Of a stretch of DNA of 64,000 bases, positions 4,563-63,999 are shown piece after piece. The notes under the pieces are model-generated. The model ran no database searches. It had not been told where the DNA came from and worked only from the letters and a program-made list of their open reading frames with translations. Origin of the DNA: Planctomycetota bacterium (lineage in GTDB: Bacteria > Planctomycetota > MHYJ01 > JACQXL01); contig JACRIK010000002.1 of assembly GCA_016235865.1 (NCBI GenBank), positions 7,520 through 71,519 of the forward strand. Reading direction: 5' to 3'. The number at the start of each line of letters is the position of its first letter. The first letter of the stretch is position 1. The position numbers were made by a program, and so were the translations under genes.

Positions 4563-4585
4563 ATTATGGACTAGCTTATTAACAA

Positions 4586-4611: not shown

Positions 4612-4622
4612 AATATGGGAAT

Positions 4623-5153
4623 CTAATCAGTGGAATCTGTGTCATCTGTGGTTCCGAAGAGCTTCAGCCATTTGGGCACATCAGCCGGTTTTAGGCCGGT
4701 GAATTTCTCAATTGGGTCTTCCTTTATGTCTGTAGAGATATCTTTGTCTTTGAGCAACAGTTCTACGGCAAATTCCTGCGATGAGATAATCTTGACCCGC
4801 TTATTTCTGAGCGTTTCTGCCAGGGCCCGGTCTGATGTGACCGCGCATACATCAGAGCGGCGGGGTTTATCCTGGATATATTCTGATACCAGGTTGATAA
4901 TATGCTCATCAGCCGTGGTTCTGCCCGGGGAAAACACCACTCTGACATTGCCGGATTCCCTTTCCTGCGGGTAATGACTGACGGTCTTATCGCCGTCAAA
5001 GACCACGATGATGCGGTATTTCTTCTTTATATTGTAGGATTTGAGTTGTGCCACGAGATTGTCGCGCAGGGTTTCCAGCTGGTTGGGCTTTATGTTGTCA
5101 GACAAGTTAAGCCCGCTAAAAAGCAGATTATATCCGTCAATTAACAGAATCAT
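4623..5153 (-). CDS. YacP-like NYN domain ribonuclease
   Basis: LLIDGYNLL, IVVFDG, TADEHI and VTSDRAL motifs. Confidence 0.9.
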   Translation of the reverse strand: MILLIDGYNLLFSGLNLSDNIKPNQLETLRDNLVAQLKSYNIKKKYRIIVVFDGDKTVSHYPQERESGNVRVVFSPGRTTADEHIINLVSEYIQDKPRRSDVCAVTSDRALAETLRNKRVKIISSQEFAVELLLKDKDISTDIKEDPIEKFTGLKPADVPKWLKLFGTTDDTDSTD

Positions 5154-7006: not shown

Positions 7007-7010
7007 TATT

Positions 7011-9790: not shown

Positions 9791-9832
9791 GGAGAAATTA
9801 TATATTATGGTGTTTCACAAGTCAATTAATGT

Positions 9833-9861
9833 TTGACAAATATAGCGTCGTTGGCTATAAA
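9833..9861 (+). promoter_or_regulatory. sigma70-type promoter, probably giving a leaderless mRNA
   Basis: TTGACA-N17-TATAAA, ATG 6 nt downstream at 9868. Confidence 0.7.
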
Positions 9862-9867
9862 AAAGGC

Positions 9868-10326
9868 ATGGTGAAAATATTAGCGCCGATTGTATATGCT
9901 ATTTTTGGATTTTTCCTAATCGGATGTTCTATTTCTTATCGTGATAAAACGCCTAAGCAGAATTTATCTGAGATAGAGATAAAGAAAAGCACAATGGTTT
10001 CTTTTAAAAAGGTAAAAACCGCTGATAACACGATTATCGGTTACCTGGAGGAAACGGAAAATACTGTCGCCAGCCCCAATTCGCCAAGTGGCCGGGAATC
10101 AATAAAAATATTTTATGTTTATGATAAGGATTTTAATAAAATCGGTTTTATGACCGGACAGGGGGCGGTTTCAGTATATCAATATACGGCTAAAGGCACT
10201 ATCACCAAGGTGGTTACCGGCATGATTTATACTGTTGAAACAGGCAACAGGAGTCTTTTATCATACGGCGGTGCTATTTACTATGAAGATTTTGAGCCGG
10301 CGCCGATTTGGCATGACAAGCGATGA
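9868..10326 (+). CDS. hypothetical lipoprotein (start moved from 9784 to ATG 9868)
   Basis: MVKILAPIVYAIFGFFLIGC lipobox; the promoter lies inside the longer ORF-track start. Confidence 0.7.
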   Translation: MVKILAPIVYAIFGFFLIGCSISYRDKTPKQNLSEIEIKKSTMVSFKKVKTADNTIIGYLEETENTVASPNSPSGRESIKIFYVYDKDFNKIGFMTGQGAVSVYQYTAKGTITKVVTGMIYTVETGNRSLLSYGGAIYYEDFEPAPIWHDKR

Positions 10327-18957: not shown

Positions 18958-18994
18958 ATACGCTCATTCCTCTTTTCTGAACTATTATACCCGC

Positions 18995-34453: not shown

Positions 34454-35014
34454 TTGTTGATGTCAAATACCGAATGCCTTGTGCAGGGATTGCAACAAGG
34501 CAATGAACAATCTTTTACTACCTTGGTGGACCGTTATAAAACCTATGTCTATTCCGTCGCATATAACCGGGTGGGTAATTTCACGGATGCCGAAGAAATT
34601 GTCCAGATGGTTTTCGTGGAGGTGTTTAAGAATATCCGGAGTTTAAATGAACCGTTAAAACTGGCTCAATGGCTCCACGGTATTACTGACCGTGTTTCTC
34701 TAAACTGGCTCAGGAAATATCGTACGAAAACCATCTCTTTTAAAGAATTGGGAAATGAAATAGCCGAGGCGAAGTCCCATAATCCGATGGAAATTATTAA
34801 CGGCCAGGAGGAAACTGCCCGGGGGATAAAGAAGGCCATGGGCGTCTATAATTCACTGGAACCGGACCAGCGGGTAGTGCTTAATCTGAAATATATGGAA
34901 TCTCTTTCCTATGACGAGATAGCGAACCGGTTAGGCATTACCAGCGATGCGGTGCGGGGCAAACTCTATCGCGCCCATCTCTGCCTTAAACAAATTAAGG
35001 ATAGTTTAAAATGA
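34454..35014 (+). CDS. ECF RNA polymerase sigma factor (start may be ATG 34460)
   Basis: region 2 (LVDRYKTYVYSVAY, DAEEIVQMVF, QWLHGI) and region 4 (LEPDQRVVLNLKY...SYDEIANRLG...VRGKLYRA). Confidence 0.93.
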   Translation: MLMSNTECLVQGLQQGNEQSFTTLVDRYKTYVYSVAYNRVGNFTDAEEIVQMVFVEVFKNIRSLNEPLKLAQWLHGITDRVSLNWLRKYRTKTISFKELGNEIAEAKSHNPMEIINGQEETARGIKKAMGVYNSLEPDQRVVLNLKYMESLSYDEIANRLGITSDAVRGKLYRAHLCLKQIKDSLK

Positions 35015-35976
35015 CCTGTAATTTCAGTAACGAACACCGCAGTGACCGCGCCAGCGAACACCGCAGTGACCGCGCCAGCGAACACAGCAGTGACCGTGAG
35101 CATCCACTGGAGCGGGACAAATTGTTGGGCTATCTGGATAATGAGATAGATACCAAACAACGCGCGGAAATCGGATTGCATCTAAAGGGCTGTCCGGAAT
35201 GCCGAGATGAATTAGAGTCATTAAAAGAGGCGCAGACATTATGGCGCAGGACGCTGGGTCCGCACGCATTGGCGCCTGATTTTTATATTCGGGTAAAGAA
35301 CCGGGTATCCCGAACTGTTTTCCGCAGGTGGGCATTGAGATTTGCTGTCGCCGGCGCTGCGGCGGTCTGGATGTTAGCCGTCACCTTGGTGTTCTTATCA
35401 CCTTCCAAAGATAACCCGGTTCCCCAGGATTCAACCGCTTCTGTCGGCACCGGCGGCAATGAGATGGCAACCCGCACGGATAAACAGCCAATAGGTTTAG
35501 AACAGCCGATAACAGCCACCTCAATAACGGACTCTATCGCGATGCAGACCGAAAAAGACCACTTTAAAATCCTGCACCATAAACAACCGATGTTATCAAT
35601 CCTTGTCAAGATGCTTAAGAAGCAGGTTAGCAAGGGCGATAATGCCGACGTCAAAGAGTCAACGGCAATAGCCACCGCAGAACTAATCAAACTTCTGTCA
35701 GATAAAGATGACGAGATACGCGGGATTGCCGCCGCGACGCTTGGCGAACTTAAAGCCACGGAATCAATTCCGGAGCTGGTGAAGTTATTAAACGACAAAT
35801 ACGCCGGCGCGCGCGGCTGGGCCGCCATAGCGTTAACGGAACTCGGCGCTCAGGACAAGGTATCTCAAAATGCCATAGCGGATATAAAACTCATCCGGGA
35901 CAATAGCGACGAGGCCTATGGCGCCCGCGCCCAGGCCGCCTTGGAAAAATTAGGAATAGCGGACCACCATAAATAG
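35011..35976 (+). CDS. ZAS (zf-HC2) anti-sigma factor with TM helix and extracytoplasmic HEAT repeats
   Basis: LLGYLDNE...HLKGCPEC; TM FAVAGAAAVWMLAVTLVFL; HEAT (LIKLLSDKDDEIRGIAAATLGEL); ATGA overlap with the sigma gene. Confidence 0.9.
   Translation: MTCNFSNEHRSDRASEHRSDRASEHSSDREHPLERDKLLGYLDNEIDTKQRAEIGLHLKGCPECRDELESLKEAQTLWRRTLGPHALAPDFYIRVKNRVSRTVFRRWALRFAVAGAAAVWMLAVTLVFLSPSKDNPVPQDSTASVGTGGNEMATRTDKQPIGLEQPITATSITDSIAMQTEKDHFKILHHKQPMLSILVKMLKKQVSKGDNADVKESTAIATAELIKLLSDKDDEIRGIAAATLGELKATESIPELVKLLNDKYAGARGWAAIALTELGAQDKVSQNAIADIKLIRDNSDEAYGARAQAALEKLGIADHHK
35031..35096 (+). repeat. 24-bp in-frame tandem repeat (about 2.75 copies, EHRSDRAS)
   Basis: cgaacaccgcagtgaccgcgccag twice plus cgaacacagcagtgaccg. 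Confidence 0.92.
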
Positions 35977-36001
35977 TTTTATTAACCGAAAGGAGATTTC
36001 T

Positions 36002-37159
36002 ATGAGAAACAGGGCAGTAATTATTGGCGGTTCCATATTGGCGACCATACTGATAATTGCCGGCGGATGCTCGCAAACCTCTTTAACCACTGGGCAACCG
36101 GAGCCTTTGGCGAGCCTCGTCCTTCAGGGCGGGGAGCCGACCCAAACGGCGGCCGTATTAAACTACGATTTCATAGACCGGGGCGCCACTTCCCAGTCAG
36201 AGATGGAAGAGGTCATGGGCTCGGCTTTGGCCGGATACCTGATAGTCAACGATGGCTATCCCCGCTCAACGCTGGTGAACTACCTCTATCGGAATAAATG
36301 TTTTTATTTCCCGCTGAATACCGGCGCGCAGCCGGTCATCTTCAAATCACTCCAGAATAATCCCAAGGTCTGTTTCGCGGTTGACAAATACACCCAGTTG
36401 CACTGGTGGAGCGCTAATGTCTTCGGCCAGGCCGAGATAATCAAGGACCCGGCGCAAATTTCCAAGTGGCTTAAGGAATACGAAAAAGTCCTGGGCAAGG
36501 ACGGGTTTAATTACCCGGCTCCAAAGGATTTAGCCGGCACTGTTATCGTCAGGATTACGCCCGAGACCATCTCCGGCCGGAAGATGAACGACCCGGCGAA
36601 CCCCAATTATGCCGTGCGCCTGCCCTGGATAACCCCGTCGCGCGGGCCGGCTGATGATACCGTCGCGCCAAGGGACCTGCCGGTTGAGGTATCCGGCTCC
36701 ACATTAGCCAAAGAGGTATCGCTGGACGGAGTTGACCCCAAGGTGGTGGAATCAATCCTCAAGGGCGTCGGCGCCTGCCGGCTGAACATCGTAGATACCG
36801 AGTATCCCTACTCCATACCGATGAGCGTGATGTCTTATACCAACGGTAATGTCATCATGCACTCCAATAAAAAAGGCCAGAAGATGGACTGCCTCAGGGT
36901 CAACCAAAAAGTAAGTGTGGATTACCAGTGGTTCTGGAACAATTCCAATTGGATAGCCCTGAATTTAGAGGGCCATATAAATATCCTGGAAAAACCCGAG
37001 GACATGGCCAAGGCGCTGGGTATGGGCAATCCCCAGATGCTGGACCGGATGGCCCAAAGAATGGCTATCCTGGAATTCGTCCCGGAAAAAATATCGGCCC
37101 GGCAGCTGGAAATACCGCGCAGATGGTATTCGCAGATGCCCGGGACTAAAACAAGATAA
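36002..37159 (+). CDS. lipoprotein with two PNPOx/NimA-like split-barrel flavin-binding domains
   Basis: lipobox LIIAGGC; domain 1 DGYPRSTLVNY...QNNPKVCFAV...NVFGQAEII...RITPETISGRK; domain 2 ACRLNI...YPYSIPM...GQKMDCLRVNQKVSV...FVPEKISARQ. Confidence 0.75.
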   Translation: MRNRAVIIGGSILATILIIAGGCSQTSLTTGQPEPLASLVLQGGEPTQTAAVLNYDFIDRGATSQSEMEEVMGSALAGYLIVNDGYPRSTLVNYLYRNKCFYFPLNTGAQPVIFKSLQNNPKVCFAVDKYTQLHWWSANVFGQAEIIKDPAQISKWLKEYEKVLGKDGFNYPAPKDLAGTVIVRITPETISGRKMNDPANPNYAVRLPWITPSRGPADDTVAPRDLPVEVSGSTLAKEVSLDGVDPKVVESILKGVGACRLNIVDTEYPYSIPMSVMSYTNGNVIMHSNKKGQKMDCLRVNQKVSVDYQWFWNNSNWIALNLEGHINILEKPEDMAKALGMGNPQMLDRMAQRMAILEFVPEKISARQLEIPRRWYSQMPGTKTR

Positions 37160-37231
37160 TTGCGTCCCTAAAGGGACAAAGTTAAATCCCGTTCTGCCGT
37201 GATGTCGGGACGGGATAAGAGGAGGTAATCT

Positions 37232-38233
37232 ATGAATAGAACGATAACATGGGGTGTGGTAACTATGATAATCTGCCTGATTTACCTGGGCGTAACAGTT
37301 GCGGAAGAAAAGCCGGACGGGAAGGAATACAACCTGGTTTATCATGTAGAAAGCGGACAGAAGCGGCAATGCGCCTATGAACTCTCGGTTGCCGGAGAGG
37401 TCAAGGTGGTTACCTTTGGCCGGCATCCGGTAATGAGGTTTTCCAGCAAGATAGCCAGGACGATTAATGAACAAATATTAGAAGCCAAGAAAGACCCTGA
37501 CGGCAATATTAACAATCTAAAAATGAAGCGGGAATATGCCTCATCGGTCTTAACCGCCCTGGAGCCGGTCAAACCCGGTGATAATGCCGCGATGGAACCC
37601 GGGCCGGAGAAGAAAAACGAGAATACGCGGCCGGACGCGATTGATAAACAGACCCTGGAAATATCATACCAGGATGGCAATGTAAATATAAAGCCGGCCA
37701 GCGCCGCCGGGACAAAAGGCGGCAGTAAGCCAAAAGACGAATTATCGCCGGAGGCCCAGGCGTTAGTAACCCTGCACGATGGCAACTTCGCCCTTTTCGC
37801 GCCCAATAAGAAGGTGAAAATAGGAGATGAATGGGAAATCAAATCAGATGTGATATCCCAGGTGCTGGCGCTCAAAGACGGGCGGCCGATTCGTTATGTC
37901 CACAAATCGCCTGAGGTGGGAATGCGCTTTGACATACAGGATAACAGCGTGATAAAATGCGCCTTTACCGAGGTGGTGAAAATAGACGGTGTTGACTGCG
38001 CCAAGATTAAGTTGGAAGGCCAGATTGCCGCCCGGCAGGATGATATCCTGAATGCGCAGATAGCTGTGAACGGTTTTACCTGGCTGGCGCTCAAGGATGG
38101 CGCGGCGAAAAAAGTGGAACTGGACGGCGATATGAAGTTAAGCGGCGAATACCCGGGTCATGAGACGGATAAAGGTATGGCGCTCCGTTGTATTGTTGAA
38201 GGTAAAGGCAGGATGTCGCTGAAGACAAAATAG
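37232..38233 (+). CDS. hypothetical secreted beta-rich protein
   Basis: SD gaggagg; signal peptide MNRTITWGVVTMIICLIYLGVTVA; no recognised motif. Confidence 0.75.
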   Translation: MNRTITWGVVTMIICLIYLGVTVAEEKPDGKEYNLVYHVESGQKRQCAYELSVAGEVKVVTFGRHPVMRFSSKIARTINEQILEAKKDPDGNINNLKMKREYASSVLTALEPVKPGDNAAMEPGPEKKNENTRPDAIDKQTLEISYQDGNVNIKPASAAGTKGGSKPKDELSPEAQALVTLHDGNFALFAPNKKVKIGDEWEIKSDVISQVLALKDGRPIRYVHKSPEVGMRFDIQDNSVIKCAFTEVVKIDGVDCAKIKLEGQIAARQDDILNAQIAVNGFTWLALKDGAAKKVELDGDMKLSGEYPGHETDKGMALRCIVEGKGRMSLKTK

Positions 38234-38401
38234 GAATAACAGAATATGACAACCGAAAACAGGATGCACATCGTGGTGGTAATGCTTGAGATGTGGTCTA
38301 CGGCGGGCTGTAAATCCTAATGTTCTTGGTGTGCTGTGGGGGCGGGGAAATTAGTATTGCCAGCCCAGCACATTCCTTATGTGCTGTGGTGTCCCAAGAT
38401 T

Positions 38402-38533
38402 ATTATGGGCAAAAGGTTTGCCGGCGGGGAAACCGGCGACCGGAAGAGTTTTTACGGCGCTCCCGGCCTGAGCGTGCTGCGCTGCAAAGCCCAATTCACC
38501 GATTTCAAATACCTGATTTACGAATAACCGCCT
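38402..38533 (+). repeat. 132-bp direct repeat, copy 2 (orphan gene 3' end followed by a terminator)
   Basis: encodes the identical peptide IMGKRFAGG...FKYLIYE*; no plausible start or SD; followed by aaccgcct...aggcggtttttt. Confidence 0.95.
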
Positions 38534-38706
38534 CCAGGTTATACCGGATTGCGTCCGATTTTAGGCGGTTTTTTGACCGACCGTATTCCTTTGCCAAGAG
38601 ATACGGTCTGGGTTGATAACATTCGGCGCTCCGTATATGCTTATTGTTTTAGTAAGCTCACAAGAGACGGCGCCTGTTCGTATTTCGGATGCCGTTCGTT
38701 CGGTAA

Positions 38707-38934
38707 TCAAATGACATTCCTTTGCCCATCAGATGCCGCGCCTAAGGAATTGAATGGGGATGTAACAGGCGGATGGGGGTGGGGGGACTCCCCCCTGACG
38801 ATGTAACTTGTTATTTTATAATGGGTTCGGACAACAGAGTTAGCCGATTTTGGTGTTTTGGCCGGTTGATTTGTTTCGGCCATTGCCGATAAACTCAAGG
38901 CGCATACGCCGGCGATTACGGCTAATCTTTTCAT
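38707..38934 (-). CDS. small hypothetical secreted protein or gene remnant
   Basis: signal-peptide-like MKRLAVIAGVCALSLSAMA; 75 aa. Confidence 0.45.
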   Translation of the reverse strand: MKRLAVIAGVCALSLSAMAETNQPAKTPKSANSVVRTHYKITSYIVRGESPHPHPPVTSPFNSLGAASDGQRNVI

Positions 38935-38956
38935 AAACTTATTACAGTTAGGTTTA

Positions 38957-39035
38957 GGGATTGCTTCGTCGTCCCGTTGGGACTTCTCGCAATGACCGTC
39001 ATTGCGAGGTCGCCGTAGGTGACCGTGGCAATCTC
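38957..39035. repeat. GTCATTGCGAG REP-like element, copy 2 (permuted arm order)
   Basis: gggattgcttcg...ctcgcaatgac c gtcattgcgag...gtggcaatctc. Confidence 0.8.
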
Positions 39036-39185
39036 TAACTCAGGTATATTATTACCATATATAAACGAATAAAAGGGGTGGCCGGCTCACTTTATTTTTG
39101 GATTTTCCATTAAATCCCCTTTTTTCAGCGGGAAAAGAGGGGGGGGGTGGCCAAGTAAAATAAACAGATAAATATTATTTTCTAC

Positions 39186-39214
39186 TTGACAAAACGATGT
39201 CAACAGGTTATATT
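39186..39214 (+). promoter_or_regulatory. sigma70 promoter of the pilin-like operon with overlapping TTGACA-N6-TGTCAA dyad
   Basis: TTGACA-N17-TATATT; TGTCAA at 39198-39203. Confidence 0.7.
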
Positions 39215-39283
39215 TATTATGGAAGCAAGCATGGGAAGCACCGGGATGGGTATCTGTGGGTGTTATTCATAAGGATTGTGCTT

Positions 39284-40438
39284 ATGAGAATTTCTATTGA
39301 TAGCGATAGGGGTGTAGCGCTGGTCTGGACCATGCTGGCCATGACCCTGATGCTCAGCACCATCCTGGTGGGCATTTCAATGCTGGAGATGACCTCCGGC
39401 GTGCTGGAGAGCCAGATTCAGCATTACGGCCAGACCCCGAGCATCGCCAAGGCCGGGCTGTTTGACGCCCTAGCCTGGTTCCGGCGCCAGACTACCCAGC
39501 CGGTGATTGCTTTCACCCCTCAGCGCGATATGGTGTCTATCCCGATCGTTAATGACACCGATGACCCGACTATCGGCATCGTCCGCGAGATTGATATGGA
39601 CCAGAGCGCCAATATCTTTGGCCGCTACGAGGTTATCAGCAGCACGGTGACCGATATCTCATCCCAGCGCGGGTTTGCCGGGGCCGGCACGATCTGGAAT
39701 ATCGAGAGCATCGGATATATCTACCGCAGGTTAGACCCGACCAAGGCATATAACGTCTGGCCCAACCAGGTTCTGGCGCGTAATATCCTGGCCGTTGATA
39801 TCCGCCGGGTGAGCATGGTCCTGCCGGCTGAGGCCGCGCTGTGCACCTATAACGCCGGCAGCACGACCATCGGAAATAAAGGTAAGGTTATCGGCAATAC
39901 TAAAACGGGAATTGCCTACCGGACCGGTTCGGGCACACTGACGCTTGACGCCGGCTCCACGGTTACCGGGACCCCGGCGACTAACCCTATCCCTCTCCCT
40001 TATAATGACAGTTGTTCGAGCGTCTTCGGGATGAGCGAGGATGAATTGAAGTCCATCGCGGATTATTATGTCACCAATGAAAATGATATTCCGGTTCCGA
40101 TACCCAATTACAAGATTGTCTTCTTTGACAGCGGTCCGGGCGGCGCGACCTTTAATTCCAGCCGGCCGCTGAAAGGCACCGGGATTTTCTATTGCACCGG
40201 CAATGTGATTATTGCCGCCAACAGCGGTTCTTCTTATAACGGCATCATTTATTGCGCCGGCAATTACCAGCAGCTGGCGCCGTCACAAATCAACGGCTCG
40301 GTGATTGTCAAAGGCAATGCCAATGTTATTGGCAGCGGCGATATTTCGGCAATTAATTACGACGCCACGGTCCTGTCGCAGATTCGGACCTATACCGGGC
40401 AATACCGTTTTGCCAAGGGATTTTTCCTGAAGGAATAA
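39284..40438 (+). CDS. PilX/GspK-like minor (pseudo)pilin (start ATG 39284)
   Basis: MRISIDSDRG|VALVWTMLAM class III signal lacking Glu5; AKAG...A after the helix; SD-like aagga. Confidence 0.75.
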   Translation: MRISIDSDRGVALVWTMLAMTLMLSTILVGISMLEMTSGVLESQIQHYGQTPSIAKAGLFDALAWFRRQTTQPVIAFTPQRDMVSIPIVNDTDDPTIGIVREIDMDQSANIFGRYEVISSTVTDISSQRGFAGAGTIWNIESIGYIYRRLDPTKAYNVWPNQVLARNILAVDIRRVSMVLPAEAALCTYNAGSTTIGNKGKVIGNTKTGIAYRTGSGTLTLDAGSTVTGTPATNPIPLPYNDSCSSVFGMSEDELKSIADYYVTNENDIPVPIPNYKIVFFDSGPGGATFNSSRPLKGTGIFYCTGNVIIAANSGSSYNGIIYCAGNYQQLAPSQINGSVIVKGNANVIGSGDISAINYDATVLSQIRTYTGQYRFAKGFFLKE

Positions 40439-40441
40439 ATT

Positions 40442-43400
40442 ATGAAATCATTTAAGAATCAATCCGGTATGACGCTGCTGGAGGTTATCATCGCGATGTG
40501 CATCATCACGGTGGTGATAGTGACCAGCGTGCATTTCATTGTCGGGACGCAGACCGCGGTGATGATGAACCAGGACCGGGCCTTTGCCATGCAAAAGGCG
40601 CTGGCTCTGGTGAACGAGTTGCGCGCCTATGCCCAGTCCAAAGAGGATGCCGGCGGGGCCTCGACCCTGGATGTCTTTGACGACGGCGTCGGCACCTCGG
40701 GGCTCCTGACCATCGACTCGACCGTGGTTGACCCGGCCAATATCGTCAGCGGCAATTCCTGGCTGGGTACCCGGTGGCGCTATGCCCGGCGCATCACGAT
40801 CCGCAAGTTCCCGTCTTTTGAGGCAACTAACGTCAGAATCGTCGAGGTGAAGATATTCCTGACCCAGCCCGGCGATGATGCGGCCTCGGTCCTGGCCGAT
40901 ATCTCCTCGGTGGTGACCACCGGCGGCGATATGGCGCCGCCCAAGCAGGTCTATGATATCTATCTGCTGTGCGTAGAGAATATCCCGGGCTGGTGGGTCT
41001 ATATGGCCTATCTCAAGCCGTTTATCGAGACGGCCCTGAGCGATATGGAGTCGCGCAATCCGGGCCTGGAATTCCGCCAGCACTGGATTACCAAGGCCGC
41101 CTACGGACGGGACCAGGAATACAAGCCATACTTCAATGACGCGGTTGATTCCACGGCGGATATCAATTATGTTTATTTCTATCCGGGCAGCATGCCGACC
41201 GGCTCCGGGGTCAGCCAGTATTACGTCCCGGGCAACGTAAACGCCCGGATTAATATTGATAACGTCACCGCCAATGATTATAATGCCGCCGGCTCGGACG
41301 ATGATATCACCGACAATTCCTGGCCCTACACGCTGGCCGACCAGTATAACCACGCCATGCGTTATCCGGATGAATGGACCCTTTATCAGAGACGGCTGTC
41401 GGACAATACCGAACAGGATGGGGTGCTGACCTACCGGCTCCTGCTGGACGATATGATTCTTAATCCGGATAACTATCGTAATGCCATTTTCATCAACCTG
41501 CACGGCGAACTGATTCCGATGCCGTCCATCAGGAATTATTCGGACGCGGCCAAGGACCCGGTCACCTATCCGCAGTGGCGCGCGGTGGCCCATCCGGAAA
41601 AACTGCGCTATGGTTTGGCCGAGGATGTCACGCTCCGCGTCTACGGCTACCTGGCTGACCCGACCATTTCCGGCAGTGACCTGATGATTTCACCGGCCGG
41701 CACGTCCGTGCCCATCCGGATCGACATACCGGATATGCATCTAACCCCGTCTGATATCGCGGTTACGGCTATCCAGGGCGGGATAGACCAGAACCCGCAG
41801 GATGCCATCTCGGATACGTATATTGCCGTCAATCCGGCCCTGACCACCGCCGGCACCGGCAGCACCGTTAACCGGATGTATTATACGATGGACTATATTA
41901 CCGGCACCAACACGTCCGTGATAAAGATGTATAACACGCCGCTGCGCGCCCCGAAGAGCGGCGGCGGTTTTTGCGGCCTGGATACGAGCCGGCGTTTGTA
42001 CGGGATGGACTATATTCCCTGCCCGGTTTCCGGCACTGATTTCAGCAGCCGGTCATTAACTTACGCGGCCACCGCTAATTCCTGGAATGTGAGAGCCGTG
42101 GCGTTAGGCACGGTTGGGGCGGGCGGCGCCCTGGCTTCCAATGGCGCCGATTATATCTATGCCTTCCGGGGCGGAGCCACCCAGACCTTCTGGCGGCATT
42201 CTATTTCCGGCAATTCCTGGCTGGCCCGGGCCAATTACGGGTTCAACGTGGGCACCGGCGGCGCCCTGGTCTATGTCAATACCAACGGCCGTATTTACGG
42301 ATTTGCCGGGAATACCACCAGCACATTCCAGTATTATACGGAAGACGCCTGGACCGTCAGGACGAATGCCCCGGGCACAGTCGGGGCCGGCGGCGCCCTG
42401 GCTTATCCCGGCGCGAACGATTTTATCTACGCGCTCCGGGGCAACGCAACCAGCACTTTCTGGAGTTATTCCATCTCGACCGATACCTGGATTACCATGA
42501 CGGCGGCTCCGGGCTCGGTCGGCACCGGCGGCATAGGCGGTGGCGCCCTGGCGGCTACCGGCGATGATTATATTTACGCCTTCCAGGGCGGCGGCAACAC
42601 CGCTTTCTGGCGCTATTCCATCTCGGGAAATAATTGGGTCGTCATGGCGCCTACCACCCCGTATAATGTCGGGGCCGGCGGCGCCCTGGTCTATCCCGGC
42701 TCCGGTGATTATATTTATGCCTTCCAGGGAAATAGCAGTCTGCCGTTCCTGCGCTATTCGATTTCCGGCAATTCCTGGATTACCATGACCGCGGCGCCCG
42801 GCACTATTGCCACCGGCGGCGCACTGGTTTATTCCAGCTCCAACGATACTATCTACGGCCTGAGGGGAAATACCCTGACCACCTTCTGGCGTTGCGACCC
42901 CACGCCGTTGCCCATGAATACAGCCCGCTGGCTGATAACCATCCCGGCAGCGGTTATCGACCGCGAGATTGGCAATTTCAGCACGGTCCTGGCGTTCCAG
43001 ACGCGAATAACGAACACCGACGAGGCGCCGACCAGCGGCGTAATGTGGCCGCCGGCTTCGAGAACCGTTCCGGCCAACCTGTCAACTACCTATATCTGGC
43101 GCAATAATCTGGCTGATGAGGTGCCGTTCAGCGAGCGCTACCAGTTCCAGGGCGACCCGCGCCATTGCCCTTATGCCGATGTCAAGGCCAATCACGGTTA
43201 TAACTGGTATTTTGATAATTTGCGGGATGTGACAAATGTAATCACCGAGTGGCCGGGCTTTGACGCCACCCGGCTTAATAACGGGACCAGCGCCACAGCC
43301 GATGGCTGGCATGGTTCAGGCGGTACGACCGGCGATATGCTGGAGATTGATGTTCCGCGATTCTTCCAGTTCATCCGGACCGCCCTGACCGGTTCTAACG

Positions 43401-44752
43401 GGGTCTGGACCACCATCACCGGGTTCTCTTACTATTATATGGGTCTGGGCAATGAAATCGGCTATGATTCGGCCAACGGTTTTCCAACCAGTATTCCGAC
43501 ATCAAGTAAACCTTTTAATGGCGCCTCCGGTACGCGCAACGAAGATTCTATTACCACGGCTCTGAGTGGGGGCGTCAAATACATCAGGGAGAATGTCTCG
43601 CCTTACTGGTGGGGCATGCCCTGGCTGGGCGAGTTATATCCGGATAAGGCATATACGCCCACCTGGACTGCCAATGGCAATCTGCCCAGCGGCAGTACGG
43701 CCAATACCTATGTTCGTATCCGGCGCCAGAGTATTACCACTACCGGCGCGGCGCCCATAGCCAAGAGCGGGACCTTGCCGGTCGGCACGAACTTTTATAC
43801 CACCGGCACGGCAAACCTGGCCTGCGTGCGCCGGACCAATACCTATGGTTGCACCTCGTTATTTAATATCGGTACAACCACCTCAACCTTCAGGCATAGA
43901 TTTCCGACCGGCACGACCGGTAGTATCACGGTTTCCGGAACGAATATGGCTAATGCCTATTCTTTTCCCCTCCAGACCTCGATGGATATTAATCGCCCCT
44001 TTTCAACTACATACAATTGGACTGTTGTGCCTACGGAATTTAGTGTTGCTGATTATTCTTCCATTCGTTGTAGCGCCGAGATACTCAGGGGTTTAAGATT
44101 CTATGGCCATGTGGACGGCGCCGGGTGGGAAGGCAGTTCTCTGGTGCGGCTCCAGAATAATTCCCTTCCGGTCAGCCCGAGCGCTTTTCTCGCGGTCAAC
44201 GGCCTGGCCCAGACCGTTCAGATGGGGACATCAGGCATTGCCCGCTATGCGGTTATGAGTTTGCTGCACAGTTTATTAAGCGCCGGGGTGACCGGCACGC
44301 CCAGCCGGGTGGTCCAGTTGCCCAGAATAGAAGTCAAACAGCCCAATGTCACCACCGAACTGGAAAACCCGTCAACGATTACCATTACCTGGGAGACCCA
44401 ATGGAAACGTTGGGACGAGCAGAAATACACCTCGGAGTATTCGGATACATTTACCGAGGTTATTACGGATGTGAGGTATGCCTTGATTTATTCCCGCGAC
44501 AACGGCCGGACCTGGCGGCATATAATAGATGACGACATTGTCAAGCCCGAACCGTCTGCCACGGCCGGCTATCCGACCCAGGCGTTCTGGTTGAACGATA
44601 CTGCGCCGGAGGGCGATGAGAATTATACCTGGGATGTGGCTGATACCGCCTATTTCCCTGAAGGCAATTATATTATCAGGGTGGAGGCATACCGCAATAA
44701 CCAGCTGACCCATTATGCCTACCACGAACAAAGAATATATATAAACAGATAG
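40442..44752 (+). CDS. giant 1436-aa PilV/GspI-like prepilin with internal Kelch-like beta-propeller
   Basis: MKSFKNQSG|MTLLEVIIAM with Glu5; A.QKA..LVNELR; six GxGGAL...IY...G....FW.Y repeats at about 42070-42905. Confidence 0.82.
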   Translation: MKSFKNQSGMTLLEVIIAMCIITVVIVTSVHFIVGTQTAVMMNQDRAFAMQKALALVNELRAYAQSKEDAGGASTLDVFDDGVGTSGLLTIDSTVVDPANIVSGNSWLGTRWRYARRITIRKFPSFEATNVRIVEVKIFLTQPGDDAASVLADISSVVTTGGDMAPPKQVYDIYLLCVENIPGWWVYMAYLKPFIETALSDMESRNPGLEFRQHWITKAAYGRDQEYKPYFNDAVDSTADINYVYFYPGSMPTGSGVSQYYVPGNVNARINIDNVTANDYNAAGSDDDITDNSWPYTLADQYNHAMRYPDEWTLYQRRLSDNTEQDGVLTYRLLLDDMILNPDNYRNAIFINLHGELIPMPSIRNYSDAAKDPVTYPQWRAVAHPEKLRYGLAEDVTLRVYGYLADPTISGSDLMISPAGTSVPIRIDIPDMHLTPSDIAVTAIQGGIDQNPQDAISDTYIAVNPALTTAGTGSTVNRMYYTMDYITGTNTSVIKMYNTPLRAPKSGGGFCGLDTSRRLYGMDYIPCPVSGTDFSSRSLTYAATANSWNVRAVALGTVGAGGALASNGADYIYAFRGGATQTFWRHSISGNSWLARANYGFNVGTGGALVYVNTNGRIYGFAGNTTSTFQYYTEDAWTVRTNAPGTVGAGGALAYPGANDFIYALRGNATSTFWSYSISTDTWITMTAAPGSVGTGGIGGGALAATGDDYIYAFQGGGNTAFWRYSISGNNWVVMAPTTPYNVGAGGALVYPGSGDYIYAFQGNSSLPFLRYSISGNSWITMTAAPGTIATGGALVYSSSNDTIYGLRGNTLTTFWRCDPTPLPMNTARWLITIPAAVIDREIGNFSTVLAFQTRITNTDEAPTSGVMWPPASRTVPANLSTTYIWRNNLADEVPFSERYQFQGDPRHCPYADVKANHGYNWYFDNLRDVTNVITEWPGFDATRLNNGTSATADGWHGSGGTTGDMLEIDVPRFFQFIRTALTGSNGVWTTITGFSYYYMGLGNEIGYDSANGFPTSIPTSSKPFNGASGTRNEDSITTALSGGVKYIRENVSPYWWGMPWLGELYPDKAYTPTWTANGNLPSGSTANTYVRIRRQSITTTGAAPIAKSGTLPVGTNFYTTGTANLACVRRTNTYGCTSLFNIGTTTSTFRHRFPTGTTGSITVSGTNMANAYSFPLQTSMDINRPFSTTYNWTVVPTEFSVADYSSIRCSAEILRGLRFYGHVDGAGWEGSSLVRLQNNSLPVSPSAFLAVNGLAQTVQMGTSGIARYAVMSLLHSLLSAGVTGTPSRVVQLPRIEVKQPNVTTELENPSTITITWETQWKRWDEQKYTSEYSDTFTEVITDVRYALIYSRDNGRTWRHIIDDDIVKPEPSATAGYPTQAFWLNDTAPEGDENYTWDVADTAYFPEGNYIIRVEAYRNNQLTHYAYHEQRIYINR

Positions 44753-44865
44753 TATTAGAACCAGTTGACTAATTCTGGAGTGGGACTGATTAGTCGAATC
44801 GTGACCGTGAGCATTTGAGCCGGCGGCTCAAAGCGGAACGAACAAAGAATATATATAAACAGATA
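44725..44865 (+). repeat. 27-bp direct repeat (44725-44751 and 44839-44865) enclosing palindromic inserts
   Basis: cgaacaaagaatatatataaacagata twice; between them tagaaccagttgactaattctgga and tttgagccggcggctcaaa. Confidence 0.9.
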
Positions 44866-44868
44866 ATA

Positions 44869-45909
44869 ATGAAAACTAACCGTAAATCAATCTTGGGCAC
44901 CACCTTTATTGAAATGATGATTGCCATAGTATGTCTATCGGCTGTTGCCATTGCCACCTTTGAAATTATGACCCAGTCGCAGGAGACCAATGACACGGTT
45001 AACGCCTGGAATATGCTCACCCAGTGGGGCCAGACCGCAATAAACAAGGTTAACCTCGATGTTACCCAGGCCTGCGTGCTCTACCAGAACGACACCTTGG
45101 GTAACGGCTATAAGGCCGACTTGCAAAGCGAGGCCGGTTTCCCGGCCCTGGCCACCAGCACACTGCCCACGATTGACGAGACCGGCACTTTTAGCCAGGA
45201 TAGCGTCAGTGATGGTACCAGCACCCGCACCGGCAATGCCATACTTTATGCCACTAATACACTGCCTTATATATCTAAAGACCCGGCCGATGGCGGCTTA
45301 GTGACCCCGACGCGCCGGGTTGATATGTATCGGATGGTATATTATTACCTCTCGCCGGTCACCCAGACTATCGGCGCGAGTGCGACCTCGCTTCGGCTGG
45401 TCAAATGGACCAGTCGGGAATTTGCCGACTATAATCAGGTGGCGGCTATTACAGCCACCGAGCGGACTAATTTTGTTATAGAACTGTATTTCGACCGCGG
45501 CATCAGGCACCTCTGGGTCCCGCGCGATACGTCGGACACGGCATTCTATGCCATTGACGAATACGGCGGCATCAGCGCCTTGCCTGAGCCGTCTTTTACC
45601 ATTCCGACCGGGATTGACGCGGATGGGAATGCCATGGTCAAGAGCGTCATTGACAGATTGGGCCGGGGGTTTGCCTCGCTGGCCTGGAATAATTCCACTA
45701 CTTTCAGGACGCCTGATATCGTGCCCAAATTTGCCATGGGCAGCCAAGCCGGAGCCGGATTTCCGCACGGGATGGAGGTTCAGATAATCGGCCCGACCGG
45801 CGCCCGTCAGGTGCTGGTGCGATTAGTCCTGGCATACGTAGTCAGCGGCGCCGGGCAGAATCTCTATTCCACTGAAGCGCATACCATCGTTACCTTGAGG
45901 GAATATTAA
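44869..45909 (+). CDS. PilW/GspJ-like minor (pseudo)pilin (start ATG 44869)
   Basis: MKTNRKSILG|TTFIEMMIAI with Glu5. Confidence 0.78.
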   Translation: MKTNRKSILGTTFIEMMIAIVCLSAVAIATFEIMTQSQETNDTVNAWNMLTQWGQTAINKVNLDVTQACVLYQNDTLGNGYKADLQSEAGFPALATSTLPTIDETGTFSQDSVSDGTSTRTGNAILYATNTLPYISKDPADGGLVTPTRRVDMYRMVYYYLSPVTQTIGASATSLRLVKWTSREFADYNQVAAITATERTNFVIELYFDRGIRHLWVPRDTSDTAFYAIDEYGGISALPEPSFTIPTGIDADGNAMVKSVIDRLGRGFASLAWNNSTTFRTPDIVPKFAMGSQAGAGFPHGMEVQIIGPTGARQVLVRLVLAYVVSGAGQNLYSTEAHTIVTLREY

Positions 45910-47056: not shown

Positions 47057-49009
47057 TTATTCTATTTTGTATTTGCCGCCGGAATTGAAGTAATTCACGC
47101 CGTTATAACCGCCCCAGACAATCATTTCTGTGCCGGTCCAGGTGCCGCTGTGATAAAGCCGAGCGGCTGGGGCATTGTTGGCGGTTATCGGTCCCCAGAT
47201 AGCATAGACCGGGTCATAGGCTCCGCCTGATTGCAGGACGCCGTCGCCGCCCCAAATGAACATCTTGTTGCCGGTCCAGATGCCGCTGTGATACATCCTG
47301 GCCGATGGGGCATTGGTGGTGGAAAGAGTGGCCCAGGTATTTGCCGCCGGGTTATAGATTGCGCCGTCGCCTAATGGCGCGGTTCCGTTATAGCCGCCCC
47401 AAATAATGATTTTCTTGTTATAGGTCTCGGAGCCTTCCCCGGTCCAGACCGAAGAGAATCCCCATCTTTGTGACGGCGCATTGGTGGTGGCCATCGGGGT
47501 CCAGATGTCATAGGCAATGTCATAGATGCCGCCGGAAGTGCCGCCGCCGTCGCCGCCCCAGACAATCATTTTCATTCTCCAGCTGTCCGTACCCGAGACC
47601 GGGCCGGTCCAGAATGCCATGTGTTTGGAACGGATAGATGGAGTATTAGCATGAGTCCCGTTCCTGAGGTTGGTCAGTTCGCTGCTGGTGCGCCATTCGT
47701 CCAGCACCGGGTCATAGACGCCGCCGGTATTGAACGCGGAACCGGCCTTGCCGCCCCAGATAATCATGACGTCACCGGTCCAGACCGCGCTGTGGAATGC
47801 CCTGGAATTTGGCGCATTGGTGGTGGCCACCGCGGACCATGAGCCGCCGCCCCCGCCTGATGGGTCATAGATGCCGCCGTCGTTATAGTAGGTGGTGCTG
47901 GCGCCGGAGGCCTCGATATTGTCTATGAGAATAGTCACCGCGCCGGGGTCTGAGACCGCTTTTAAACCGATGGATTTTACGTCGGTGAGCAGTGCCGGGT
48001 TGGTGAAATTGAGCGTAACCAGCGTCCAGGCTCCGGCATTCAGGGTGGTATTTATGGTCAGGTCTTCAACCGTGGTGGAGACGGTGGGCGTAACGGCTAT
48101 TAAGAAAGATAACACGCCCGGCTGGATATTTTGCGAGGCCCTTATCCAGAAAGATGTTTGAGTGCGGGCCGAGATATTCAGCGGCGAAGGCAGGTCGCGA
48201 TAAGCCAGTACCCCAGTGGTGAAGGCTGTGTCAACGGCGATGCTGATAGAACTGGTTCCTTCTTTGGTGATGGATGAGTTAAGAGTCGCGGTGATGTCCG
48301 GTGTCGTGCCGGTCCAGTTGCTGTCGCAATTGTCTATGGTTTGGGTGACGGATGATATAGTATAACCGCCCCAGATAATCATTTTGGAACCTGTCCAGAT
48401 AGCGCTGTGGCCGGTCCGGCTGGATGGCGCCCCGGTCAGCGTGATATTAGACCAGGTATTGGCCGTCGGGCTATAGACTGCGCCGGTATTCAGGGTCTTT
48501 TGGCCGTCATAGCCGCCCCAGAAAAGTATCCCGTATGGCGGGGCCCAAAGCGCCGTATGATTGGTTCTTGAAGCAGGCGCGGTAGCATCGGCTAGTGTGG
48601 TATCCCAAGAAGTCAGGGTTCCGGCCACGTTGGAATAGTCGCTGGTGGTGACATAACTGTATGCCCTGACCCGGTAGTAATAAGTATTGTTGGCGGTTGG
48701 GGTTATGGCACCCTGGGTGGTATGCGTAAAAGCCGTGGTATCTGCCGTGAGGGTTGCTACCAAACTATAGGTAAGGGTCGGCGTGGCGCATTCCACATAG
48801 AAGCCGATTTCATTGTCCGTATTATCAGTCCAGGACATGGTGATAGAGGTGGCGGAAGTGGCCGTAACCACCAGATTGCCGGGCGCGTATAAATATAATT
48901 CGCCGCTGGAGCCGCTGTCCGAGTTGTTGTTGTTCAGGCAGCTGCTGATGCCGAGAAAGATGAAAAATGAGAGCATGAAGATAAGGGAGAAGATAATAAT
49001 CTTTTTCAT
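47057..49009 (-). CDS. lipoprotein with FN3 domain, Kelch repeats and an inserted beta-sandwich module
   Basis: lipobox GISSC; FN3 (SITMSWTDNTDNE.GF...YYYRVRAY); repeats R..H.A.WTG..MI.WGG...YDP..W. Confidence 0.85.
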   Translation of the reverse strand: MKKIIIFSLIFMLSFFIFLGISSCLNNNNSDSGSSGELYLYAPGNLVVTATSATSITMSWTDNTDNEIGFYVECATPTLTYSLVATLTADTTAFTHTTQGAITPTANNTYYYRVRAYSYVTTSDYSNVAGTLTSWDTTLADATAPASRTNHTALWAPPYGILFWGGYDGQKTLNTGAVYSPTANTWSNITLTGAPSSRTGHSAIWTGSKMIIWGGYTISSVTQTIDNCDSNWTGTTPDITATLNSSITKEGTSSISIAVDTAFTTGVLAYRDLPSPLNISARTQTSFWIRASQNIQPGVLSFLIAVTPTVSTTVEDLTINTTLNAGAWTLVTLNFTNPALLTDVKSIGLKAVSDPGAVTILIDNIEASGASTTYYNDGGIYDPSGGGGGSWSAVATTNAPNSRAFHSAVWTGDVMIIWGGKAGSAFNTGGVYDPVLDEWRTSSELTNLRNGTHANTPSIRSKHMAFWTGPVSGTDSWRMKMIVWGGDGGGTSGGIYDIAYDIWTPMATTNAPSQRWGFSSVWTGEGSETYNKKIIIWGGYNGTAPLGDGAIYNPAANTWATLSTTNAPSARMYHSGIWTGNKMFIWGGDGVLQSGGAYDPVYAIWGPITANNAPAARLYHSGTWTGTEMIVWGGYNGVNYFNSGGKYKIE

Positions 49010-61688: not shown

Positions 61689-62240
61689 TCAATTAGACCG
61701 CATGATTTTAGCATAATATATGATTTTAGCTATGTGTTCGGTAAGCGTGGCATAATGAAACGCTTCTTCTAAAGATTGTCCGGCTGAAAACAAACCGTGT
61801 CCCTTAATTAATACAGAACGGTATTTCTTCAAGAGCGGGGGAAGGTTTTTCTCAAGTTCCTTAGAGGCGGTTGCCTTCAGACATTTCAGGATAGGTATCT
61901 TTGGCAGGGCGATCATCCCTTCTACGTCTATCGGGATAATCTCTTTCCTGATTAGTGAAAATGCAATGGCTATGGGTGGATGGCAGTGTACAATGGCTTT
62001 TGAGGAAGTTGTGCGATATATTGCCCGATGGACATTGATCTCGGTTGAATCCAGATAATCATTCCAGGTATTCTCTAGGCCAGTGCGGATAATATCCCTT
62101 TTTGTAAGAAATCCCTTCATTACTCCGCGGCGGGTAATATAGATTTTATTGCCTATTTTAAGAGAAATATTCCCGCTGTGCGAGTGATTGAGTCCGCTGA
62201 CAAAGAGCGCATTGCCGATTTGCTTGAATATCTTTAACAT
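61689..62240 (-). CDS. class II aldolase/adducin family protein
   Basis: SGNIS, STEINVHRAIY, IVHCHP, LIKGHG. Confidence 0.92.
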   Translation of the reverse strand: MLKIFKQIGNALFVSGLNHSHSGNISLKIGNKIYITRRGVMKGFLTKRDIIRTGLENTWNDYLDSTEINVHRAIYRTTSSKAIVHCHPPIAIAFSLIRKEIIPIDVEGMIALPKIPILKCLKATASKELEKNLPPLLKKYRSVLIKGHGLFSAGQSLEEAFHYATLTEHIAKIIYYAKIMRSN

Positions 62241-63126: not shown

Positions 63127-63999
63127 TTAGTTTTGCGTTTCAATAATTACTTTAATAGATTTATCCGGTTTAACGGTTAATTGGAATCCCTTAACTGTGT
63201 CTTTAAGCCCGAATCTGTGAGTAATCATGTCTTTTACAGTGATCTTTTTAGAGTTTATTAATTCCATTGCATCAAGATGGTCTTTTTCATTACCCGCATA
63301 GGAGGACGTTAAGGTTATTTCGTTACGCCAGAAGAGTTTATTTATCTGGATGCTGATTTTCTCATCGTTGGCAGGTGCGAAGAATAGAATCGTTCCGCCC
63401 CTTTCCACCGATTCGATTGCCTGTTTTACCGCGTTTGTCGCTCCGGTGCAAAGTATAACCAGGTCAGCTAAGCGGCCTTTATTATGTTTCCGTAAGATAG
63501 ATGGAACATCTCCGTCGGCTTTTATAGCAATATTTGCGCCGAATTTCTGTGCCGCGTCAAGGCGGAAATCATCTGTGTCAGTAGCGAATATCGTATCCGC
63601 ACCTGATGCCCGGGCGCATTTTATATGTAACAGACCAGCAATTCCGCTTCCTATAACGAGGATACTTTGTTGGGGTTTTAATCCGGCCTGTTTTTGCCCG
63701 CGAAGAACACAAGCCAAAGGTTCGGTAAAAGTGGCTTCTTCATAAGAAATCTTATCAGGTATTCTGAATACGCCCCTATCGACATTGATTGCCGGAATTC
63801 GGACATACTCGGCAAAGCCACCTGGATAGAAATTAGTTTGCCTTAATATGTCACAAACTGTGTGGTGGTCGTTCAGGCAGTAATGGCATGTATTACAAGG
63901 GACGTGGTGTGCGGCGACAATACGATCGCCTTTTTTATATTTGGAAACGCCCTCACCGACCTTATCGACGACACCGGCAACTTCATGTCCCAGGACTAA
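63127..63999 (-). CDS. zinc-dependent (MDR) alcohol/sugar dehydrogenase; 5'-truncated by window edge
   Basis: frame open from 63999: LGHEVAG, CNTCHYC...C, GGFAEY, EPLAC, GSGIAG. Confidence 0.93.
   Translation of the reverse strand, partial: LVLGHEVAGVVDKVGEGVSKYKKGDRIVAAHHVPCNTCHYCLNDHHTVCDILRQTNFYPGGFAEYVRIPAINVDRGVFRIPDKISYEEATFTEPLACVLRGQKQAGLKPQQSILVIGSGIAGLLHIKCARASGADTIFATDTDDFRLDAAQKFGANIAIKADGDVPSILRKHNKGRLADLVILCTGATNAVKQAIESVERGGTILFFAPANDEKISIQINKLFWRNEITLTSSYAGNEKDHLDAMELINSKKITVKDMITHRFGLKDTVKGFQLTVKPDKSIKVIIETQN

Follow-up and report, generated by a model that had tools for sequence, protein, structure and literature searches.

A stand-alone trio of prepilin-type genes with a giant, probable PilV-position modular pilin in Planctomycetota and Acidobacteriota

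Three adjacent genes with prepilin-type N-termini

In a 64,000 nucleotide stretch of a groundwater metagenome contig from a Planctomycetota bacterium (GenBank assembly GCA_016235865.1, contig JACRIK010000002.1, positions 7,520 to 71,519; hereafter the window) we examined three adjacent, co-directional open reading frames (ORFs) on the + strand, designated A, B and C. Gene A (39284..40438, +) encodes a 384 aa pilin-like protein assigned to the PilX/GspK position from the ORF call, a family alignment and an AlphaFold2 (AF2) model, and its ATG start is backed by both gene callers and the family alignment. Gene B (40442..44752, +) encodes a protein of 1436 aa, assigned as a giant modular pilin at the PilV/GspI position from the ORF call, its homologs, an AF2 model of a homolog and hidden Markov models (HMMs). 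Gene C (44869..45909, +) encodes a 346 aa pilin assigned to the PilW/GspJ position from the ORF call, family alignment, HMMs and synteny. The start of gene C in the ORF list, a TTG at 44815, is unlikely to be the true start, and we took the ATG at 44869 instead because it is the start supported by the family alignment and by the database entry for the protein. Genes A and B are separated by 3 nt and genes B and C by 116 nt, and AGGA-like ribosome-binding sites were found ahead of A and B.

All three proteins and their families carry a class III signal, comprising a short hydrophilic leader, Gly(-1) and approximately 20 hydrophobic residues. The leaders read MRISIDSDRG/VALVW in A, MKSFKNQSG/MTLLE in B and MKTNRKSILG/TTFIE in C (the slash marking the predicted cleavage site), with Glu at mature position 5 in B (MTLLE) and C (TTFIE) and none in A (VALVW), as in PilX/GspK-type subunits. 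The same signature was evident in the family alignments: Gly(-1) and Glu5 (E14) are invariant in the B stem; the C family conforms to (K/R)G/xTLxE; and the A family has a nearly invariant Gly(-1) and a hydrophobic helix without Glu5, followed by AxAGLxDALAWFRRQTxQPV. All 77 distinct B N-termini from the related loci described below contained the class III motif, and so did 209 of 251 B representatives when a strict regular expression was applied, with a median leader of 8 aa. Against the general prepilin models, the window B protein scored 20.0 bits with Pfam N_methyl (PF07963; cut-off 21.2) and its stem alone scored 18.8 bits with TIGR02532, above the cut-off of 16.3; several B relatives exceeded the N_methyl cut-off (34.7, 23.6 and 22.4 bits), C scored 14.7 bits, under the cut-off, and A matched neither the N_methyl nor the TIGR02532 HMM.

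A long alpha1 helix followed by an antiparallel beta-sheet was predicted by AF2 for A and for a homolog of B, the N-terminal helix being 55–63 residues long. The structure of B was read from the AF2 model of the short-form homolog P0002, which is 73–80% identical and carries a numbering offset of 12. This model (predicted local distance difference test (pLDDT) score 84.9, predicted template modelling (pTM) score 0.83) has a helix at residues 24–78 and strands at 126–188, followed by approximately 950 residues of mixed, mainly beta, domains. Transferred to the window protein, and together with TIGR02532 and the motif, it delimits a pilin stem at aa 1–175 of B (40442..40966, +) with a class III signal, alpha1 at about aa 12–66 and an antiparallel sheet at about aa 114–176.

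The window B stem scored 25.3 bits against gspI (cut-off 44.35) and 25.2 bits against pilV (cut-off 52.2), and across 43 family members the stem matched gspI in 34, pilV in 20, ComGE in 20 and XpsI in 16, with weak matches to HpsB. The window C protein scored 19.9 bits against gspJ (cut-off 64.85); gspJ was the top model in 12 of 22 C family members, HpsC was matched in 6 of the 22, and a search of the C profile against the PDB retrieved pilin alpha1 helices only. As these scores lie below the cut-offs and fall mostly in alpha1, neither protein can be placed in the gspI, pilV or gspJ equivalog families: B neither passes a GspI/PilV HMM nor resembles a subunit of ~100–140 aa, and C falls outside the GspJ/PilW equivalogs. 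At the level of the family, GspI/PilV is the best-fitting class for the B stem and GspJ the best-fitting class for C, as far as sequence models can indicate. Taken together, the data support the identification of A, B and C as prepilin-type subunits in the order X-like, V/I-like, W/J-like. Three statements of an earlier note on this DNA are thereby borne out, namely that three adjacent genes carry class III signals with the N-termini quoted above (backed by the ORFs, leaders and conserved families), that they follow an X-, V- and W-like order (backed by the family-wide Gly(-1)/Glu5 pattern, the gspI/pilV and gspJ scores and the AF2 stems of A and B) and that the V-like subunit is a giant rich in Thr, Gly, Asn and aromatic residues; B contains 10.8% Thr, 9.1% Gly, 6.3% Asn, 6.1% Tyr, 2.6% Trp and 1.6% Lys.

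The predicted solenoid of A and the body of B

The AF2 model of the window A protein (pLDDT 87.9, pTM 0.70) consists of an alpha1 helix at aa 6–68 and a four-stranded sheet at aa 98–175, followed by a beta-solenoid at about aa 184–358 (39833..40357, +) with a flanking helix at aa 361–371; short strands are predicted at aa 374–383, after the solenoid. The solenoid resembles ice-binding proteins (DUF3494-like) according to AF2, Foldseek and a profile search: the top 13 Foldseek matches were all ice-binding proteins (probability up to 0.99, target TM-score 0.31–0.46; for 3uyv, 0.99 and 0.43, respectively) and the A profile matched an antifreeze protein in the PDB with an E value of 0.018. The GspK alpha-domain was not predicted by AF2, the beta-solenoid standing in its place. 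A pilin fold combined with an ice-binding-like beta-solenoid is also the architecture of all cyanobacterial PilX homologs, in which the solenoid sits between the penultimate and last beta-strands and has been proposed to act as a tip plug replacing PilY1 (Schuergers et al., bioRxiv 10.64898/2026.02.12.705559). In joining a pilin fold to such a solenoid, A matches this cyanobacterial type of PilX by AF2, Foldseek and profile search, and the short strands that follow its solenoid would be compatible with the same insertion point.

Beyond its stem, B comprises a conserved body interrupted by a lineage-specific insert. The N-terminal part of the body (aa 176–543; 40967..42070, +), delimited by alignment and column conservation, holds the most conserved blocks, ENIPGWW and INLHGEL. 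The C-terminal part (aa 824–1436; 42911..44749, +), delimited by alignment and the AF2 model of the homolog, contains the motifs QFxGDPRHCPYAD and GNEIGYDxANGFP and a terminal beta-sandwich with an Asp-box-like SRDNGRTW, for which the BNR match was marginal (E 0.087). Column conservation peaks at 0.82–0.84 near ENIPGWW and INLHGEL and reaches 0.4–0.6 in the stem, and the family retains ~45% identity across phyla with many invariant D, E, H, R, W and Y residues. Both A and B thus pair a pilin module with a non-pilin module, the solenoid in A and a body of ~1260 aa including the insert in B. No Pfam family matched the B body apart from Kelch in the insert, and we obtained no match to an adhesin, PilY1 or other known domain in the body. 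A PilY1-type C-terminal beta-propeller likewise gave no Pfam match in A, B, C or the Pfam-scanned ORFs of the window. Neither the B sequence nor the B profile retrieved anything from the PDB, and Foldseek against the PDB and BFVD returned generic beta-sandwiches only, with low TM-scores. Two Acidobacteriota loci (L006, 13299–13826; L023, 13269–13850) have the C-terminal beta-sandwich of B annotated as an ORF of its own, of ~175 aa with A1 HMM scores of 97–102, because of either a frameshift or a true division of the protein before its last domain.

The insert of the window protein (aa 544–823; 42071..42910, +) was bounded by alignment breaks at 543/824 against the short forms and is absent from most family members. 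It contains six Kelch-like repeats of ~47 aa and matches Kelch_6 with 31.3 bits (cut-off 25.3), and from its sequence it is probably a six-bladed Kelch-like propeller. A clade of full-length homologs, 54–61% identical over 99–100% coverage, shares the insert, which is therefore not an assembly artefact. Inserts of 66–393 aa occur in ~50 of 239 full-length B members, concentrated at profile positions ~360–560 and ~640–680, with a hotspot at positions 520–559 that received 11 inserts of 161–288 aa; those of the longest variants are mostly without a Pfam signature, one weak discoidin match excepted.

These observations do not sustain the proposal of the earlier note that an adhesin had been fused into the V-position pilin to make a swappable tip module. 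The ~950 aa body is the most conserved part of B, has no adhesin match and is invariably joined to the stem in the 436 representative clusters, since the alignment of each full-length representative starts at the N-terminus of that protein. A survey of homologs for variable passenger domains, as the note had advised, instead revealed a fixed body in which only the inserts at a few hotspots vary. With variation confined to the inserts and the scaffold around them fixed and conserved, we do not regard B as a carrier of exchangeable adhesins.

Distribution, synteny and genomic surroundings

Database searches with B yielded more than 424 relatives (E = 0 to 1e-228) of 1100–1620 aa; those that have a name are listed only as 'prepilin-type N-terminal cleavage/methylation domain protein' or as PulG, PilV or GspH family members. 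The A and C families were found on the same contigs. In an exhaustive search of 1.84 billion representatives clustered at 50% identity, the B HMM retrieved 436 clusters with E values of 1e-30 or lower and 832 when the limit was relaxed to 1e-3; the median length of the family is 1155 aa. Approximately 256 GTDB species genomes carry the cassette, and the best 80 of these belong to Planctomycetota (Brocadiia, Phycisphaerales and Planctomycetia) and Acidobacteriota/Thermoanaerobaculia, including CP011806, 'Acidobacteria bacterium Mor1'.

Synteny was counted over 87 loci with HMMs for A, B and C. C lies directly downstream of B in ~84 of the 87 loci and A directly upstream in ~60, the flanking genes being otherwise unrelated between loci across two phyla. 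The cassette is usually single-copy and situated among housekeeping genes; two metagenome-assembled genomes contain two copies each (L020/L021 and L056/L084). A high-GC subclade of Planctomycetota departs from this arrangement in that A does not adjoin B: it follows downstream in L045 and L084, and in L065 it occupies the opposite strand. A search for a replacement partner in the A-less subclade found none, B-C being flanked there by an ABC transporter on one side and a thioredoxin-like gene on the other. In an Acidobacteriota subclade (L054, L082) a fourth, GspH/PpdA-like pilin directly follows C, completing the canonical four. A conserved family for each protein and synteny in dozens of unrelated genomes show that the trio is not a chance arrangement.

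A GspE/PilB-type signature was detected within 10 kb of the trio in 1 of the 87 loci, L018, where PilT-like and PilB-like ATPases lie ~5–6 kb downstream and two more small pilins upstream. We rejected L018 as a full pilus locus: gatA, gatB and hisF separate the ATPases from the trio, making the linkage weak. The region ahead of the L018 trio (4578–8375, +) encodes pilins of 168 and 184 aa, a 517 aa protein without a Pfam match and a DUF3108-like protein, and this locus may be an extended version of the cassette. A GspD-type secretin is encoded 8.6 kb upstream of the trio in a related Brocadiia contig. From the conserved synteny, the unrelated flanks and the rarity of machinery linkage, we conclude that the cassette is a stand-alone unit with an invariant core of B and C. 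The closest GTDB relatives of the window (L048, 20177–21067, -; L077, 11292–12083, -) each encode another pilin of ~230–250 aa that exceeds the TIGR02532 cut-off; its gene lies on the strand opposite the trio, approximately 6 kb further downstream. The window yielded no counterpart.

Within the window, we ran Pfam scans on nearly all ORFs of at least 150 aa and motif scans on every ORF of 60 aa or longer; six of the ORFs reaching 150 aa were examined by the motif scans alone (27–749, 1103–1879, 2034–2651, 9784–10326, 61689–62240, which is Aldolase_II, and 63127–63717). No complete type IV pilus (T4P) or type II secretion system (T2SS) locus, with ATPase, platform protein, prepilin peptidase, secretin and major pilin alongside the minor pilins, was encountered in the window, and neither another class III signal nor a GspE/PilB signature turned up in the motif scans. 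ORFs of 528, 398 and 617 aa, of a size suggestive of GspE/F/D or PilT/C/B, were rejected on the basis of Pfam matches to an FHA-GAF cyclase, Dxr and RseP, as were machinery-sized ORFs of 360, 396 and 536 aa, which matched FGE-sulfatase, MoeA and Lnt. The earlier note was accordingly right that PilY1, major pilin, ATPase and secretin are missing nearby, none having emerged from the Pfam and motif scans, and that the cassette stands apart from assembly machinery, as it does in the window and in 86 of the 87 related loci. Following the source contig outwards from its two terminal proteins led, for one of them, to an 11-kb contig that adds ~1 kb, while the other had no database record.

The Pfam-annotated genes of the window instead serve housekeeping and envelope functions; among their products are Dxr, RseP, AspRS, SMC, Lnt, MoeA, an amidase and an extracytoplasmic function (ECF) sigma/anti-sigma pair. 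Directly upstream of the trio leader (34454–38233, +) lie genes for the ECF sigma factor, a zf-HC2/HEAT anti-sigma factor, a PNPOx-like protein and a 333 aa protein, and a regulatory link between these sigma/anti-sigma genes and the trio is possible. About 1 kb downstream of the trio (47057–49009, -) is a gene for a 650 aa protein with fn3 and a double Kelch-propeller; derivation of the Kelch insert of B from this neighbour was rejected, no significant similarity being found between them. A related Brocadiia contig (L001, 20065–21852, -) encodes a 595 aa Kelch protein ~5 kb downstream of its trio, and a Kelch protein may be a recurrent neighbour of the trio in the Brocadiia clade. Elsewhere in the window we noted a fusion protein, FHA-GAF-adenylate/guanylate cyclase (8204–9790, -), and two tandem paralogous proteins of ~960–980 aa with DUF7948 and SBBP beta-propeller repeats (16081–21943, -).

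The intergenic region of ~1 kb upstream of A (38234–39283) contains a sigma-70-like promoter candidate, TTGACA-17-TATATT (39186..39214, +), which matches the consensus at 11 of 12 positions, lies 70 nt upstream of A and is the best-scoring + strand site in the region. The own promoter ascribed to the trio in the earlier note is present to this extent, and we treat the site as a consensus match only, because promoter-like sites were not significantly enriched overall (16 found across the region against 10.5 +/- 3.3 expected). No riboswitch or other RNA was matched in Rfam at E <= 1 in the 1-kb leader, which holds a single two-copy direct repeat (17 nt, 82% identical) of a kind that often arises by chance. 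A short palindromic element, GTCATTGCGAGG, occurs with its inverse as two inverted pairs in intergenic DNA (1909–1995 and 38985–39009), the latter pair within the leader ahead of A; its four matches compare with 0.19 expected by chance, and by sequence it looks like a REP-type (repetitive extragenic palindromic) intergenic repeat. The same long intergenic region contains a 75 aa ORF (38707–38934, -) with a signal-peptide-like N-terminus, MKRLAVIAGVCALSLSAMA.

Relation to known systems and interpretation

The closest parallels are the cyanobacterial minor-pilin sets, encoded PilX-PilV-PilW-FimT, which prime distinct filaments on a shared machine and which include an expanded PilX_EPS homologous to HpsA, a protein needed for polysaccharide secretion (bioRxiv 10.64898/2026.02.12.705559). 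With these the trio shares the X-V-W order, a pilin fold with a bulky solenoid at the X position, the lack of PilY1 and a location away from machinery, as well as, in the subclade of L054 and L082, a FimT/GspH-like fourth gene after C. It differs in that the expanded subunit is the PilV-position protein of 1100–1660 aa rather than PilX (PilX_EPS/HpsA), in the absence of FimT from the window and most loci, and in its phyla, Planctomycetota and Acidobacteriota; no sequence-level similarity between the two was detected with the libraries used. Modular type IV pilins, such as S. sanguinis PilB/PilC, CofB of enterotoxigenic Escherichia coli (ETEC) and T. thermophilus ComZ, are expected to be tip-located, and the largest InterPro-detectable module among those surveyed is 860 aa (Raynaud et al., 2021, PMC8179133). 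The trio follows the same principle of an N-terminal pilin module carrying an extra module, A resembling ComZ as a solenoid on a pilin. In contrast, the extra part of B spans ~950–1480 aa in several domains, has a Pfam match only to Kelch in the insert and none in the PDB, and forms a fixed, highly conserved scaffold with insertion hotspots that is not swapped between lineages.

As in the T2SS (GspK-GspI-GspJ) and type IVa pilus (PilX-PilV-PilW(-FimU)-PilY1) tip sets, there are three pilin-like subunits of which only the one at the K/X position lacks Glu5, and the best, though weak, matches of the B stem and C are to GspI/PilV and GspJ. Here, however, the order is K-I-J rather than I-J-K, A has no predicted GspK alpha-domain, the subunit at the I position is ten times as large as normal, an H/FimU subunit, PilY1 and linked machinery are lacking, and the HMM scores are all below cut-off. 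The Verru_Chthon cassette includes a very large protein A. Defined computationally only (TIGR02596/02599), it is a prepilin-like cassette of the Planctomycetes-Verrucomicrobia-Chlamydiae (PVC) superphylum that resembles the trio as a stand-alone multi-gene prepilin-type cassette and is weakly matched by some trio-family members, although these matches reach ~20 bits in relatives against cut-offs of 70–256 and are confined to the alpha1 helix. The window proteins gave no match to the Verru_Chthon HMMs at E <= 0.1 and fall outside that cassette.

We favour, with moderate confidence, the explanation that the trio is a core minor-pilin set of the PilX-PilV-PilW (GspK-GspI-GspJ) type with a giant modular pilin at the PilV position, served by machinery encoded elsewhere and having A at its apex. 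The N-terminal hydrophobic helices would insert A, B and C into the inner membrane, where a prepilin peptidase encoded elsewhere would cleave each after Gly(-1), and the three would then join via their alpha1 helices as a heterotrimer capping or priming a type IV filament whose machinery is presumably also encoded elsewhere. A, with its beta-solenoid and without Glu5, would occupy the apex like PilX/GspK and may act as a tip plug, and C would pair with B as a PilW/GspJ-like subunit. The PilV/GspI-like stem of B would carry the conserved multi-domain body of ~950 aa, plus the Kelch-like propeller of six blades in the window clade, and would display it at the filament tip for a putative ligand or activity. 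The match of the A solenoid to ice-binding proteins, combined with the X-V-W order, counts in favour of this PilX-type assignment by analogy with the cyanobacterial PilX architecture. The explanation also draws on the family-wide Gly(-1)/Glu5 pattern, the TIGR02532 and N_methyl scores of the B stem and its relatives, the AF2 stems of A and B, the class matches of B and C, the tight synteny, the fourth pilin of the Acidobacteriota subclade and the additional pilins and ATPases of L018.

Several observations weigh against it. The Pfam-scanned ORFs of the window include no T4P or T2SS ATPase, platform protein, prepilin peptidase, secretin or PilY1, and neither a FimT/GspH-type fourth pilin nor a major pilin was found within its 64 kb. 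The class-specific HMM matches are all far under the curated cut-offs and lie mostly within alpha1; PilX_N and GspK each matched 1 of 30 A family members (E 0.003–0.01). Thus, of the HMM checks recommended in the earlier note, the prepilin part succeeded, with TIGR02532 passed by the B stem and N_methyl by relatives, and the PilX_N part largely failed. Foldseek with A retrieved no GspK, PilX or any other pilin, and with B the only pilin retrieved was a weak match to S. sanguinis PilB. The B body is conserved in the manner of an enzyme or a structural scaffold, which is atypical for tip adhesins, and a search for RNA evidence from the source returned only groundwater DNA runs. Many proteins of Planctomycetota bear prepilin-type N-termini and are perhaps not filament subunits.

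An alternative that we consider unlikely overall, but the most serious of those weighed, is that the prepilin N-terminus acts only as an anchor or export signal and that the proteins stay anchored in the inner membrane as a periplasmic or envelope complex without ever polymerising into a filament, with an enzymatic or structural envelope role for the B body. It would agree with a body that is more conserved than the stem and rich in invariant charged and aromatic residues, with the lack of any adhesin-domain match in B, and with a cassette that is usually single-copy among housekeeping genes and has no reliable link to machinery or a major pilin. It accounts less well for the strict presence of Glu5 in B and C and its absence from A, a pattern that fits staggered helix packing in a filament tip, for the X-V-W order and solenoid PilX shared with functional cyanobacterial priming sets, and for the fourth GspH-like pilin in one subclade. 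The idea that the B body is not a passive adhesin but a conserved catalytic or ligand-processing machine on a pilin stem at the filament tip, acting for example on polysaccharide or another ubiquitous polymer, is speculative, and we think it improbable.

We are similarly doubtful that the trio is the tip of a T2SS- or Hps-like pseudopilus secreting proteins or exopolysaccharide, with the B body located at the secretin or engaged in substrate handling. The top models of the family are indeed from the T2SS (gspI, XpsI and gspJ), accompanied by the weak HpsB and HpsC matches, yet pilV and ComGE score similarly and such scores cannot separate T2SS from T4P classes. K, I and J are the three subunits of the crystallised T2SS tip trimer (summarised in PMC8179133), and the homology of cyanobacterial PilX_EPS to HpsA, which polysaccharide secretion requires, points in the same direction, but a subunit of 1100–1660 aa is hard to fit into a periplasmic pseudopilus under a secretin. 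The GspD-type secretin upstream of the trio in the Brocadiia contig is likewise offset by the lack of linkage to gspG/H or gspC-F, L, M in any locus and by the PilT-like retraction ATPase of the sole locus with ATPases. Finally, the metagenomic origin of the contig, and nothing further, could suggest spurious ORFs or an assembly chimera into which the Kelch insert had been misjoined. Hundreds of homologs with E = 0, full-length homologs carrying the insert at 54–61% identity and 99–100% coverage, conserved synteny and confident AF2 models refute this, and the chance of such an error is negligible.

As modular pilins (PMC8179133) and minor-pilin sets with a solenoid PilX (bioRxiv 10.64898/2026.02.12.705559) are already known, the designation of the trio in the earlier note as a candidate new type IV filament tip system was overstated. 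Literature searches for the B family and for 'Verru_Chthon cassette' found nothing specific; in the literature searched we came upon no PilV-position pilin of 1100–1660 aa with a conserved body of ~950 aa, itself unmatched in the libraries used, that belongs to a stand-alone cassette spread over two phyla.

Minor-pilin tip complexes decide the function of type IV filaments, and beyond the model Proteobacteria, Firmicutes and cyanobacteria most of their diversity has yet to be charted. The cassette defines a large uncharacterised family, of at least 436 clusters at 50% identity and ~256 GTDB species, in which B carries the largest pilin-borne module that we found mentioned, above the 860 aa case (PMC8179133), with a conservation closer to that of an enzyme than of an adhesin. 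On the interpretation favoured here, it would extend the PilY1-free tip design with a solenoid PilX from cyanobacteria to Planctomycetota and Acidobacteriota. If the B body were catalytic, the cassette would represent an enzyme with new folds displayed at a filament tip, on which lineage-specific propeller or lectin-like inserts tune substrate capture. The cassette also presents a well-defined subject from which to build a Pfam/InterPro family and with which to study the structure and genetics of pili in soil and groundwater phyla that have received little attention.

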